The notes below the pieces were generated by a model. That model saw only the letters and a list, made by a program, of their open reading frames with translations. It was not told the DNA's origin and made no database searches. A stretch of DNA of 64,000 nucleotides from Candidatus Gottesmanbacteria bacterium. Its GTDB lineage: Bacteria; Patescibacteriota; Microgenomatia; UBA10105; UBA927. The DNA is taken from contig JAHFKK010000001.1 in assembly GCA_023245335.1 (NCBI GenBank), positions 81,918 to 145,917 of the forward strand, read 5' to 3'. Numbering within the stretch: position 1 is the stretch's first letter; every line of letters begins with the position of its first letter. Positions 53,491 to 56,154 of this stretch are shown one piece after another. The translations under genes and the position numbers were made by a program.

Positions 53491-54045
53491 TTATACTGTT
53501 TGGGGAGTCCCCGGTTTTTTACCGATTTTTTTCACAGCTTCAAATACTGCAGTGCCTTTTTCGACAGCAAAATTTCTCGCCTTTCCGGCTAAATCCTTTG
53601 CGTTAATGGGTAAGTCTTTCAGAAAATTATGCGCAGCAAATGCCCCTTTTTCTACTCCTCTTGCCGCTGTATCCAGCTTTAATTTACTGCCTATCTTGGA
53701 CTTTGAAAGTGTATCCGCGAGCCGACCTGCTAATTCAGGTTTCACAACTGCTACAGTAGCGACGGCCAACGTCGCGGTAGTTGCGGCCAATGCGAGCCAG
53801 TGGCCCCGGACGGAACTATCGGCGGACTTGGTGGCATCGGCTTCGATCTGCGCGACAGCCTGCGCGCGCTGTTCATCGGAAAGCCCGTTATTTACGTCGG
53901 TGTATTTTTTCACCAATTCCGCGTTTTTCCTGTACCAGGCTTCTTTGGCCGCGTTTCCAGAAAACGTTTCTTTGATGCGCTGCCCTATTCCTATTTTCGG
54001 TGCTTCCATTCCTATTTCCGACATATATATTTCCTTTTGCTGCAT
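53491..54045 (-). CDS. Variable partner protein C, 184 aa, with an Ala/Thr-rich hydrophobic central segment.
   Basis: Follows small-family gene 54066..54377 by 20 nt. Contains the hydrophobic stretch WLALAATTATLAVATVAVV. Confidence 0.5.
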   Translation of the reverse strand: MQQKEIYMSEIGMEAPKIGIGQRIKETFSGNAAKEAWYRKNAELVKKYTDVNNGLSDEQRAQAVAQIEADATKSADSSVRGHWLALAATTATLAVATVAVVKPELAGRLADTLSKSKIGSKLKLDTAARGVEKGAFAAHNFLKDLPINAKDLAGKARNFAVEKGTAVFEAVKKIGKKPGTPQTV

Positions 54046-54065
54046 AGATGCAGCATATAGTAAAT

Positions 54066-54377
54066 CTAGACCCCTTCTTCCGTCAAGGCCTTATCTACTT
54101 CGCCCAGTATATGCGTCATGAGGTCGTCTATTTCTTTGAGTGCCTGTCCGTCCTTAATGGTGTCTTCTATGAGGGTAGCGTAGCTTTCGACCGTCACGCG
54201 GGTTTTCGGATCCTGGGCCAAATAGTCGAGCTTTTCCTTCGGCATGTACTTCAAAAGCACCGGCCAAACAGTCGCCTGAAGTCCTTCGGAAATCGTGGTA
54301 TACAATTCGCCTTTATCGGCGTCTGAGAGCTTACTTTGCTCTATGCGGGTAACAATTGCCTTTAGTTTATCTTCCAT
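54066..54377 (-). CDS. Conserved small-protein family member, 103 aa.
   Basis: MEDKLKAIVTRIEQSKLSDADKGELYTTISEGLQATVWPVLLKY... is about 60% identical to 54929..55240. Confidence 0.6.
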   Translation of the reverse strand: MEDKLKAIVTRIEQSKLSDADKGELYTTISEGLQATVWPVLLKYMPKEKLDYLAQDPKTRVTVESYATLIEDTIKDGQALKEIDDLMTHILGEVDKALTEEGV

Positions 54378-54428
54378 AATTCGCTCCTTTTCAACCAGTA
54401 TATACTACTCCCCGTTCCACATGCTATC

Positions 54429-54932
54429 TCATGGTTTATTAACGGTAATCCCTGTAATAAACGGTATACCAAGCCCGCTACCGAAAGGTATATCTTTTAC
54501 CCATGATGGTGGCCCCACAGCAGTCTGTAAGTTTAATGTGCCCGGGTTGAATATCCAGTTAAACACTCCTTCAGCGCCTTTTGCAATGGCTTTTGGTGCC
54601 ACATCTGTCACGAACTTCCACATCCCTGCAACTCCGACGTGCGAAATACCATACCACAACCCTAACCCGGCGCCACCGGTCACGATCCAGTTACGAATCA
54701 CGTTCCAATGGGCCTTGTCTGTGGCGGCCTGTTCAAATACCTTTTTCATGTTAGCCCGGGTCTCATCGTTGAATTGACTATACGCGATCCCATATCGGGT
54801 GGCAATTTCTTTTTGTGTGGCGCCTTTGTACGTATACGTCTCCGACAAAAATTTGCCGACTCGGTTCGCGACCCTTTGGACGATTCCCGCTTCACGTTCG
54901 GTTACAACCGGCTGTTCGGATTGTTCACTCAT
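54429..54932 (-). CDS. Variable partner protein B, 167 aa, with a Gly/Trp-rich hydrophobic C-terminal half (glycine-zipper-like).
   Basis: ...NWIVTGGAGLGLWYGISHVGVAGMWKF...FGSGLGIPFITGI. Its start overlaps the stop of the upstream small gene as ATGA. Confidence 0.55.
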   Translation of the reverse strand: MSEQSEQPVVTEREAGIVQRVANRVGKFLSETYTYKGATQKEIATRYGIAYSQFNDETRANMKKVFEQAATDKAHWNVIRNWIVTGGAGLGLWYGISHVGVAGMWKFVTDVAPKAIAKGAEGVFNWIFNPGTLNLQTAVGPPSWVKDIPFGSGLGIPFITGITVNKP

Positions 54933-55240
54933 ATATGCTCCTCCTTGAGAGCAGCATCCACTTCGTCGAGCAATTTATTCATAAGATCTTCCATCTCTGG
55001 TAAGGCCGTGCCGTGATCGACTGCGTCACGGATAAGCGACGCATACCGCTCGACAACGGCTTTGTCATTTGGATTGGTTTCGAGTGCCTTCAGATCTTCT
55101 TCGGACACGTATTTTGCGATGACCGGCCAAATCGTACCCTGAAGTCCCGCGGCTATCGTGGTATACAGTTGCGCTTTCCCCTGATCCGTGAGGCCGGAAT
55201 TTTCTATACGGGTAATAAGTGCGTTGAGTTTATCGTCCAT
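54929..55240 (-). CDS. Conserved small-protein family member, 103 aa.
   Basis: MDDKLNALITRIENSGLTDQGKAQLYTTIAAGLQGTIWPVIAKY... Confidence 0.6.
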   Translation of the reverse strand: MDDKLNALITRIENSGLTDQGKAQLYTTIAAGLQGTIWPVIAKYVSEEDLKALETNPNDKAVVERYASLIRDAVDHGTALPEMEDLMNKLLDEVDAALKEEHI

Positions 55241-55246
55241 ATACTA

Positions 55247-55810
55247 TTACGCCGGAGTTGGCTTGGGCATTTCCTGCCGTGGCTCTCCCCCCTTAAAAAT
55301 ATTATTGACAATCGGCGCGACAGCCTCTGACCCGATAACACCCGCAACATCAGCGAGGCGAGTCGCCGCCCACTCTACCGGACGGAAAACAGCCGTAGCA
55401 CCGACGCCGGCAATGGCCAGTGCTCCATGCTTTATGCTCCCTCCAAGCCATCCGGTTCCCAATGCGTTTTTCGTATATGTATACTCGTGTGTAAGGACCT
55501 TCCATCCGAGTACCAATTCCCCGACCCCCGCCGCATATCGATATATCCGTGCCATATCATAGATCGTCGGCCGCATGGTATCCAAGGCACGTTTGGCCGC
55601 GTTATCATCAAGCCGATCATAGGTTCGCTCAAACGCTGTTGCCATGGCCACTTCCGTTTCTTTCCATATACCTTTGACAGGAAATTCCGAGCCAACCTGC
55701 TTAAGTTCTTTTTTATGTATCTTGCCGCTCTCACGGGAAAGATCGCGGTATTGGATATACTGCATCACTCTATCTTTCGGGCTCTGCGCCATTTCTCCTG
55801 AATGTTCCAT
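55247..55810 (-). CDS. Variable partner protein A, 187 aa, with a Gly/Ala-rich hydrophobic C-terminal region.
   Basis: ...AAGVGELVLGW...LGTGWLGGSIKHGALAIAGVGATAVF...VAGVIGSEAVAPIV. It begins 3 nt after the upstream small gene ends. Confidence 0.55.
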   Translation of the reverse strand: MEHSGEMAQSPKDRVMQYIQYRDLSRESGKIHKKELKQVGSEFPVKGIWKETEVAMATAFERTYDRLDDNAAKRALDTMRPTIYDMARIYRYAAGVGELVLGWKVLTHEYTYTKNALGTGWLGGSIKHGALAIAGVGATAVFRPVEWAATRLADVAGVIGSEAVAPIVNNIFKGGEPRQEMPKPTPA

Positions 55811-55812
55811 AC

Positions 55813-56154
55813 TTACATGCCTCCTTCGGACAGTCCTTTTTCTACGTCGTCTAATACGGCATTTGCCAACATGTTCACCTCCTCATACACCCGTGCATCC
55901 GAAAACGGCTGCTTCATGAGGTGGGTAAATGTTTCTACTGAAACTTTGGACGGATTTTTATCAAGGTCATTAAGTTCCTCTTTTGAGATGTATTTCATGA
56001 GGACCGGGAGGACAATTTGGTGAAGATTGAGGCTGATTTGGGCATATATTTCCTCTTTGTCCTGCACCGAAAGTCCGGACTTTTCTATGCGGATGACGAT
56101 ATCGGTCAACCGCTTTTCCAAGTCGTTCTTTTTTGCATCATTTGTTGTATTCAT
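55813..56154 (-). CDS. Conserved small-protein family member, a divergent copy of about 113 aa from the ATG at 56154. The track start at 56166 is a GTG.
   Basis: MNTTNDAKKNDLEKRLTDIVIRIEKSGLSVQDKEEIYAQISLNLHQIVLPVLMKY... aligns with the family consensus. Confidence 0.55.
   Translation of the reverse strand: MNTTNDAKKNDLEKRLTDIVIRIEKSGLSVQDKEEIYAQISLNLHQIVLPVLMKYISKEELNDLDKNPSKVSVETFTHLMKQPFSDARVYEEVNMLANAVLDDVEKGLSEGGM

Follow-up and report, generated by a model that had tools for sequence, protein, structure and literature searches.

This study concerns a 64,000-nucleotide stretch of the genome of a Candidatus Gottesmanbacteria bacterium (contig JAHFKK010000001.1, positions 81,918 to 145,917; this whole stretch is referred to as the window) and, within it, a tandem array of paired genes, each pair encoding a small protein and a larger partner protein. 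The array is the 5′ end of an operon of about 15 kb and about 20 genes, which runs on the minus strand from position 56154 to approximately position 41089 and also encodes three ATP-binding cassette (ABC) proteins.

Small proteins and their partners

The array consists of six open reading frames (ORFs) on the minus strand between positions 56154 and 53491, in which genes for small proteins (small3, small2, and small1) alternate with genes for partner proteins (part3, part2, and part1), so that three pairs lie head to tail (Table 1). Three minus-strand pairs in tandem had been described in a first-pass annotation, and the six alternating ORFs were confirmed. Read in the 5′ to 3′ order, neighbouring genes are 2 nt and 6 nt apart at the first two junctions, overlap by 4 nt (ATGA) at the third, and are 51 nt and 20 nt apart at the last two; these values agree with that annotation except for the first, which had been counted as 3 nt. 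The last gap, between small1 and part1, becomes 41 nt when part1 starts at Met8, the start that gene callers use (P0232). The product of small3 is identical to P0001 (113 aa). A fourth, dispersed pair (32051–31003), previously credited with the same architecture, is indeed present, but its gene order is the reverse of that in the array, with the partner upstream, the small gene downstream, and an 8-nt gap between them.

Table 1. Genes of the operon, the fourth pair, and the neighbouring glutamate dehydrogenase (GDH), with the identity of the positional orthologues in the related loci L001–L006 to the window protein
Feature	Position	Strand	Description	Identity to window protein
small3	55813–56154	minus	113 aa from ATG at 56154; 117 aa from alternative GTG at 56166	~45–50%
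part3	55247–55810	minus	187-aa partner	27–32%
small2	54929–55240	minus	103-aa small-family paralogue	~45–50%
part2	54429–54932	minus	167-aa partner	40–47%
small1	54066–54377	minus	103-aa small-family member, the most conserved one	80–84%
part1	53491–54045	minus	184-aa partner; 177 aa if the start is Met8, position 54024	36–53%
ABC1	51265–53406	minus	713-aa probable half-transporter, N-terminal extension, divergent weakly hydrophobic membrane domain; PF00005 E 2e-31	~61%
ABC2	49204–51183	minus	659 aa, paralogous to ABC1 (49% identity); missing in some related genomes	
ABC3	46939–49155	minus	738 aa (P0264), 37–39% identity to ABC1/ABC2; the only ABC in the second sub-lineage	
x389	45729–46898	minus	conserved 389-aa protein, no known family	
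s84	45478–45732	minus	conserved 84-aa helical protein, overlaps x389 by 4 nt (ATGA)	
x266	44678–45478	minus	conserved 266-aa protein, paralogue of x304 and x286	
s104	44371–44685	minus	conserved 104-aa helical protein	
x355	43269–44336	minus	conserved 355-aa protein, no known family	
s97	42995–43288	minus	conserved 97-aa helical protein	
x304	42039–42953	minus	paralogue of x266	
x286	41089–41949	minus	paralogue of x266, last gene of the cluster	
part4	31350–32051	minus	233-aa partner, true glycine zipper	
small4	31003–31341	minus	112-aa small-family paralogue, downstream of part4, upstream of S1-domain gene	
GDH				75–80%; 84% for one partial ORF (L006)

The small proteins are related to one another, as had been proposed, and the similarity of all copies was significant by BLASTP. 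The identity of small1 is 51% to small2 (E 2.5e-36; the first estimate had been about 60%), 40% to small3 (E 1.4e-22), and 35% to small4 (E 1.3e-17), while the weakest pair, small3 and small4, shares 30% (E 3.6e-15). Sixteen columns are invariant in the alignment of the four proteins, and a family hidden Markov model (HMM) matched exactly these four in the window (small2, E 2.8e-41; small3, E 6.6e-38; small4, E 9.8e-36), the next best ORF having an E-value of 0.11. Judged from these comparisons, the four small proteins are paralogues. A match to a housekeeping family, which had been named beforehand as an outcome that would refute the cassette description, was found in neither Pfam nor NCBIfam, and the data rule out both chance ORFs and a known housekeeping family.

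The family comprises 144 members at 90% clustering, none of which has a Pfam domain. An exhaustive HMM scan of 1.84 billion representatives recovered only 97 small-family clusters at 50% identity, almost all of 100–112 aa, and the few named members belong to Gottesmanbacteria or Patescibacteria. The AlphaFold2 model of small1 (pLDDT 85, pTM 0.66) is all-alpha with six predicted helices (residues 2–14, 19–44, 47–55, 57–60, 63–74, and 78–100). A conserved helix of the small proteins carries LQATVWPVLLKYMP, and neither a signal peptide nor a membrane segment was found in the small protein.

The JGI name 'RNA-binding protein YhbY', attached to the family member P0048, was rejected, because P0048, P0013, and P0017 gave no CRS1_YhbY Pfam match at E ≤10; the YhbY/CRS1 fold is alpha/beta, whereas the predicted model of the small family is all-alpha. 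A marginal PDB sequence match to Shr HID (E ~0.004) was judged to be due to chance. Separately, the small-family HMM gave repeated weak matches (up to 22 stretches) in the tandem repeats of P0200, P0207, P0211, and P0213, which are giants of 2,300–2,900 aa and one protein of 464 aa (example repeats, VSRAIETSSLPQAQKNEITQEF and LIDRIKNSNMNDVDKAKLYQRIRNYL), so that the N-terminal helix-turn-helix-like motif of the family appears to serve elsewhere as a repeat unit as well.

Concerning the partners, part1 has an Ala/Thr-rich predicted membrane helix at residues 81–101 (Kyte-Doolittle peak 1.95) and belongs to a family of 48 members with no Pfam match. Its AlphaFold2 model, which is of modest confidence (pLDDT 70.6, pTM 0.39), is all-helical, with one long helix that passes from the N-terminal domain (N-domain) through the membrane segment (residues 50–94 in the 177-aa numbering, approximately 57–101 in the 184-aa ORF). 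Among part1 orthologues, the mean pairwise identity is 77% in the N-domain, 49% in the membrane segment, and 25% in the tail. The conservation pattern of part2, which has an uncharged segment at residues 81–105 (NWIVTGGAGLGLWYGISHVGVAGMW) and a variable tail, is similar, and the tails of both proteins evolve fast (17–25% identity). Unlike part1 and part2, part3 combines a conserved C-terminal tail with a variable middle, and its Gly/Ala-rich segments, at about residues 95–150, are weakly hydrophobic.

The partners had all been described as glycine-zipper proteins with hydrophobic C-terminal segments. The first part of this description fits part4, whose 14 GxxxG motifs are contiguous over residues 145–188 (zipper region, residues 145–226), and weakly fits part2, which has three; it does not fit part3, with one GxxxG, or part1, whose two GxxxG motifs both lie in the charged tail and none in the membrane segment at 81–101. 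The second part was not borne out, since the uncharged segment sits in the middle of the protein and is followed by a tail of 60–80 aa.

The N-terminal halves of the partners had also been regarded as unrelated. In pairwise BLASTP comparisons, part1 and part2 matched at E 0.02 and all other pairs at E above 0.8. Profile–profile comparison revealed homology between the N-domain of part1 and that of part2 (hhalign 92.9%, E 3.6e-7; 91.4% with more sequences), and the part1-family HMM matched part2 orthologues at E 1e-4 to 0.04; the earlier statement thus fails for part1 and part2. part3 stayed unlinked. Weaker links between partner families were obtained for part1 and P260 (hhalign 54%) and for part4 and P200 (58%). 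A search of the PDB with the part1 profile returned a 24-residue local match to a Protein A helix, which was judged to reflect chance and not homology.

The association of the two kinds of gene extends well beyond the window. Among 40 small-family ORFs from 16 sources, 34 are directly followed by an ORF of 140–352 aa, and 28 of these following ORFs have an uncharged, Gly/Ala-rich stretch 15 or more residues long, which agrees with the initial description to the extent that a conserved small gene regularly accompanies a faster-evolving membrane-type gene. The six exceptions comprise two fusions, one small–small tandem, one contig end, and two ORFs whose partner lies upstream. In the array itself, the strong Shine-Dalgarno-like motif for part3 (GAAGGAGG) sits within the 3′ end of small3, and that for part2 (AAGGAGGAG) within the 3′ end of small2, alongside the ATGA overlap.

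Three contigs in ENA and Logan records carry a natural fusion of a small protein and a partner (P0145, 223 aa). The C-terminal half of this fusion and the adjoining free-standing partner are paralogues, and the fusion gene (L014, 1702–2385; L015, 1401–2084) closes an array of the order small–194–small–185–fusion, which lies beside a cupin gene and an S1 gene. Another protein, P0121, is a tandem fusion of two small proteins. Further, the rank of conservation is alike in both members of the pairs (pair 1 > pair 2 > pair 3); for example, the 80–84% identity of small1 goes with a mean pairwise identity of 77% in the N-domain of part1, and the 45–50% of small3 with 27–32% in part3. Based on this evidence, we consider it likely that a small protein and its partner form a functional pair.

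The operon downstream of the array

After the three ABC genes, the alternation of large and small genes resumes with x389/s84, x266/s104, and x355/s97, followed by x304 and x286. The genes from x389 to x286 are tightly packed, and several of their stop and start codons overlap. By hhalign, x266 is related to x304 (93%) and x286 (74%), and s84, s104, and s97 are weakly related to one another (60–84%; s84/s97, 84%); s84 orthologues are 38–56% identical. A tested relationship of these three proteins to the small family could not be established (hhalign scores did not exceed 19%), and they share with it only the N-terminal motif hhxxIExSxLLsxxxKxxLL. Scans against Pfam, NCBIfam, PADLOC, and PHROGs gave no match above cut-off for the small, partner, x, or s proteins, the ABC ATPase domain is the one component with an accepted PDB match, and the non-ABC components of the operon belong, as far as such comparisons reach, to no described family.

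The layout of the pairs also resembles that of extracytoplasmic function (ECF) sigma and anti-sigma factor pairs, in which the gene for a small cytosolic protein precedes that for a protein that crosses the membrane once, with its N-domain in the cytoplasm and a variable tail outside. With a conserved N-domain of about 85 aa, one membrane segment, and a variable tail, packed behind the small gene, a partner might sense through its outer tail and sequester or release the small protein as a regulator of transcription or of the ABC system. Marginal helix-turn-helix (HTH)-type Pfam matches were indeed obtained for small4 (HTH_69, E 0.006), s104 (HTH_40, E 5.5e-4), and part2 (Sigma70_r4, E 0.03), but all of them lie below the curated cut-offs. 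No gene matched sigma-70 region 2, the match of part2 is the sole one to region 4, the small proteins have no sigma-70 match at E ≤1, and no anti-sigma domain was detected by Pfam. Moreover, a small protein of 103 aa is too short for a sigma factor, those of the ECF type being twice as large, and three to five tandem copies in one structural operon would be atypical for regulators. Membrane-tethered signalling pairs are, in our judgement, a very unlikely explanation of the array.

The three ABC proteins are 37–49% identical to each other and match PF00005 at E about 1e-30. The motifs of the ATPase domain are intact, as GPSGIGKT (Walker A), Q561 (Q-loop), SGGE (signature), LDE (Walker B with the catalytic Glu), and H670 (H-loop) are invariant in 16 sequences. 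Among PDB and NCBIfam entries, the best matches are ABCB1, CydDC, and type I secretion ATPases; the ATPase domains are ABCB-like, and their bacterial PDB matches include the ATPase domains of the peptidase-containing bacteriocin exporters PCAT1 and ComA. The NCBIfam models CydC, LssB, and PrtD align from residues 259–378 onward and reach into the membrane domain; in ABC1, the alignments of CydC and the type I secretion model LssB begin at residues 259 and 281, respectively.

These proteins resemble ABCB-type (type IV fold) half-transporters in having a presumed membrane domain followed by an ATPase domain with all motifs intact, in their length of about 660–740 aa, and in three pairs of hydrophobic peaks spaced as transmembrane helices (TM) 1-2, 3-4, and 5-6. 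They differ from them in their very low hydrophobicity and in an N-terminal extension of about 120–170 aa; the PDB profile match is limited to the ATPase domain, and the N-terminal ~480 aa gave neither a match to the Pfam ABC_membrane model nor a PDB sequence match. ABC1–ABC3 are probably divergent exporter-type half-transporters in which the extra N-terminal extension would be helical.

Such transporters might move a non-protein substrate, such as a lipid or envelope precursor that bacteria of the candidate phyla radiation (CPR) must scavenge, with the pairs acting as stoichiometric structural or regulatory subunits. The ABCB-type exporters matched by the ATPase domains are a group that includes lipid translocators, and all of the genes are inherited together as a single operon. 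Within this operon of the window, the small, ABC, x266-type, and s-type families each have three copies, which suggests a multi-subunit assembly, and the membrane domains of the ABC proteins are weakly hydrophobic and Ala/Gly-rich, like the segments of the partners. However, no family for lipid binding or lipid transfer was detected in Pfam and NCBIfam scans, tails that evolve as fast as those of part1 and part2 would be unexpected in buried structural subunits, and from lineage to lineage the small, partner, and ABC genes change in copy number independently of one another. We therefore regard accessory subunits of a transporter of non-protein substrates as an unlikely role for the pairs.

A promoter and terminator scan gave counts no higher than those of shuffled controls. 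The best terminator-like hairpin of the scan (40886–40865) lies after x286 and is followed, on the minus strand, by a tRNA gene (40716–40788) and then by the 23S and 5S rRNA genes.

Conservation across Gottesmanbacteria

Related loci were located with small1 alone as the query. In at least ten Gottesmanbacteria genomes (L001–L006, L008, and L011–L013), the locus always lies directly after the glutamate dehydrogenase gene. The order in L001–L006 is GDH, small3–part3, small2–part2, small1–part1, ABC1, (ABC2), ABC3, x389, x266, and x355, and each small and partner gene has a positional orthologue in six closely related and four more distant loci, with 45–50% identity for small3 in L001 and L003–L006. 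In a second sub-lineage (L008 and L011–L013), GDH is followed by P200, small, P260, small, a part1-like gene of 255–350 aa, one ABC3-like ABC gene, and the x/s series. The fourth pair is syntenic in L010, where a part4-like gene (64%) and a small4-like gene (82%) precede S1 (84%).

Some related loci differ in detail from the window. About 1.1 kb that is absent from the window lies between part1 and ABC1 in L001 (10883–12067), L003 (10875–11982), and L004 (10856–11906), and these inserts hold an s97-like gene of 93–94 aa, a paralogue of s97, directly upstream of ABC1. The metagenome-assembled genomes (MAGs) of L001 and L003, which have a Gottesmanbacteria-type locus, are labelled 'uncultured Gammaproteobacteria bacterium', which is probably a mislabel. 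In L007, an expanded form of the array (8422–17056) has a part4-like gene as its first member and one small–small tandem, and three genes in a block (99, 144, and 154 aa) lie there on the other strand.

The chromosomal setting consists of core genes (Rho, RadA, S1, GDH, and rRNA), and nothing mobile was seen among the annotated neighbour genes. No relatives were found in phage, plasmid, and viral-contig collections, and no DNA repeats of at least 22 nt occur between the cassettes. These observations, with the positional orthologues in syntenic loci, argue against the earlier idea that the cassettes diversify by recombination. As gene order and sequence comparison indicate, the operon is vertically inherited and restricted to Gottesmanbacteria, and the pairs are anciently duplicated. 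Since the same gene order is inherited across Gottesmanbacteria, the array is not a shuffling toxin/immunity array.

Two functions, immunity/effector and chaperone/substrate, had been put forward for the cassettes. In the former case, the ABC proteins would export the Gly-rich partners as membrane-active toxins, against which the small proteins would provide cognate immunity. The Cdz system (Caulobacter CdzC/D, CdzAB, and CdzI) and class II bacteriocin loci likewise place Gly-rich proteins beside ABC exporters, with a small companion gene, and the adjoining ABC exporters, the strong glycine zipper of part4, the fast evolution of the part1 and part2 tails (17–25% identity), and the several paralogous pairs per genome would be in keeping with such a system. 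Two hallmarks of bacteriocin loci are nevertheless missing: a regular-expression test found no double-glycine leader in 42 partner sequences, and no Peptidase_C39 match was obtained for ABC1 at E ≤1 or for ABC2 and ABC3 at E ≤0.001. Further, the partners, at 165–350 aa, are two to four times longer and have a conserved 85-aa N-domain, a real zipper occurs only in part4, no toxin domain was detected in the partners by Pfam, NCBIfam, or PADLOC, and there were no PHROGs, phage, plasmid, or viral matches.

The small proteins do not behave as immunity proteins either. An immunity protein to a membrane-active toxin usually has a membrane segment, whereas the companion here is soluble. Arms-race immunity proteins usually evolve fast, the opposite of the conservation of small1, which is at least as conserved (80–84%) as GDH. 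The small gene lies upstream in the array, whereas an immunity gene would be expected immediately downstream of its toxin. The locus is core and syntenic, not polymorphic, with strict positional orthology, no cassette replacement, and no repeats for recombination. An effector/immunity role is thus highly improbable, and of the two functions first put forward, chaperone/substrate stays viable and is the preferred one.

Outside the operon, the 23S rRNA gene (36759–40356, minus strand) is split by two group I introns (37060–37364 and 38105–38335). It is followed by the 5S rRNA gene (36503–36619), and the window as a whole gave no match to 16S rRNA. At the left end of the window, a giant minus-strand ORF begins at approximately 10022–10220, encodes more than 3,300 aa, and runs past the window's end, its frame being free of stop codons over positions 1–10226. 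A membrane helix (GFIPVWSLLLLAVFVVSMGIIVW) lies at the N-terminus of its product, which also contains repeats rich in Ala/Thr/Gln, for example AAGLTQEQISAAGIEQ.

A possible role for the pairs and its meaning

We tentatively prefer the explanation in which the small protein serves its single-pass membrane partner as a dedicated cytosolic chaperone or adaptor, the partner working with the ABC exporters. The building block would be a duplicated two-gene module encoding an all-helical cytosolic protein of about 103 aa and then a tightly packed partner of 165–350 aa. The plan of the partner, best seen in part1 and part2, would comprise a conserved helical N-domain, presumably cytoplasmic, one Gly/Ala-rich segment of weak to moderate hydrophobicity, and a fast-evolving tail. 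We infer that each small protein binds the N-domain of the membrane protein encoded just downstream, as a chaperone or targeting adaptor. The pairs, the atypical ABC ATPases, and x389/s84, x266/s104, x355/s97, x304, and x286 may then constitute one envelope machine, which would insert, export, or assemble Gly/Ala-rich proteins, the ABC proteins presumably handling the partners.

Concerning known systems, the layout recalls the type VIIb Lap/LXG and WXG100 pairs, in which a helical cytosolic protein of about 100 aa is encoded directly upstream of a larger protein with a conserved N-domain and a varying C-terminus; as in type VIIb Lap/LXG loci, there are several paralogous pairs per locus, and an ATPase-driven exporter is encoded alongside. 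The W.G motif of WXG100 proteins, however, was present in 0 of 67 small-family sequences, no WXG100 or LXG Pfam match was found, and the predicted model of small1 has six helices instead of a two-helix hairpin. The ATPases of the operon are of the ABC type, in contrast to type VII systems, and neither the operon nor the window genes scanned contained an FtsK/EssC-type ATPase. The partners also depart from type VIIb Lap/LXG proteins in having a central membrane segment and no toxin domain. The module thus appears nearest in layout to type VII small-helical-partner pairs and to ABC-exported Gly-rich proteins, but without the defining features of either. A literature search on Gottesmanbacteria ABC transporters and on glycine zippers in Patescibacteria/CPR found nothing relevant.

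Several observations weigh against the proposed chaperone or adaptor role. The reversed order of pair 4 means that small-then-partner pairing is not universal, and no relationship of part3 to part1, part2, or the other partner families was detectable by hhalign. The alignment-averaged Kyte-Doolittle peaks are weak in the part2 and part3 segments (1.05 or less) and likewise do not exceed 1.05 in the ABC proteins, where they are spaced like TM1-2, TM3-4, and TM5-6; the weak hydrophobicity of these segments and helices makes the membrane localisation of some components uncertain. The counts of the components do not track one another, as the second sub-lineage has three partners, two small proteins, and one ABC protein, and L007 (RBG_16_52_11) has five small paralogues and no ABC gene within 10 kb. 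Pair 4 and, as far as its 4-kb contig shows, the L014 array lie beside an S1 gene with no adjacent ABC gene, a finding that also counts against the pairs being accessory subunits of an ABC transporter.

A more specific form of the chaperone or adaptor explanation would be a hitherto undescribed ABC-powered export or insertion system specific to CPR bacteria, in which small targeting factors deliver the partners to the atypical, weakly hydrophobic ABC exporters, and the exported proteins act at the cell surface or in a host membrane. We consider this quite unlikely. If true, it may, for example, help an episymbiont to contact or permeabilise a host cell, and it would correspond in function to type VII Lap/LXG secretion, with an ABC protein as the motor.

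Like other CPR bacteria, Gottesmanbacteria are uncultured organisms with very small genomes and a presumed dependence on host cells, and, to our knowledge, most lineage-specific genes of CPR bacteria have no assigned function. Against this background, the present analysis corrects a tempting toxin/immunity annotation as unsupported, and the locus is less exotic than a reading as polymorphic cassettes had suggested. The defined module of a small helical protein and a predicted single-pass partner, together with its paralogous copies and its association with unusual ABC proteins, provides a concrete, testable target. At about 15 kb, the operon takes up about 1.2% of a 1.2-Mb genome, a sizeable investment. 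As its order is kept clade-wide and small1 evolves no faster than a central metabolic enzyme, the operon would serve a core, lineage-defining envelope function of Gottesmanbacteria and not an accessory weapon.

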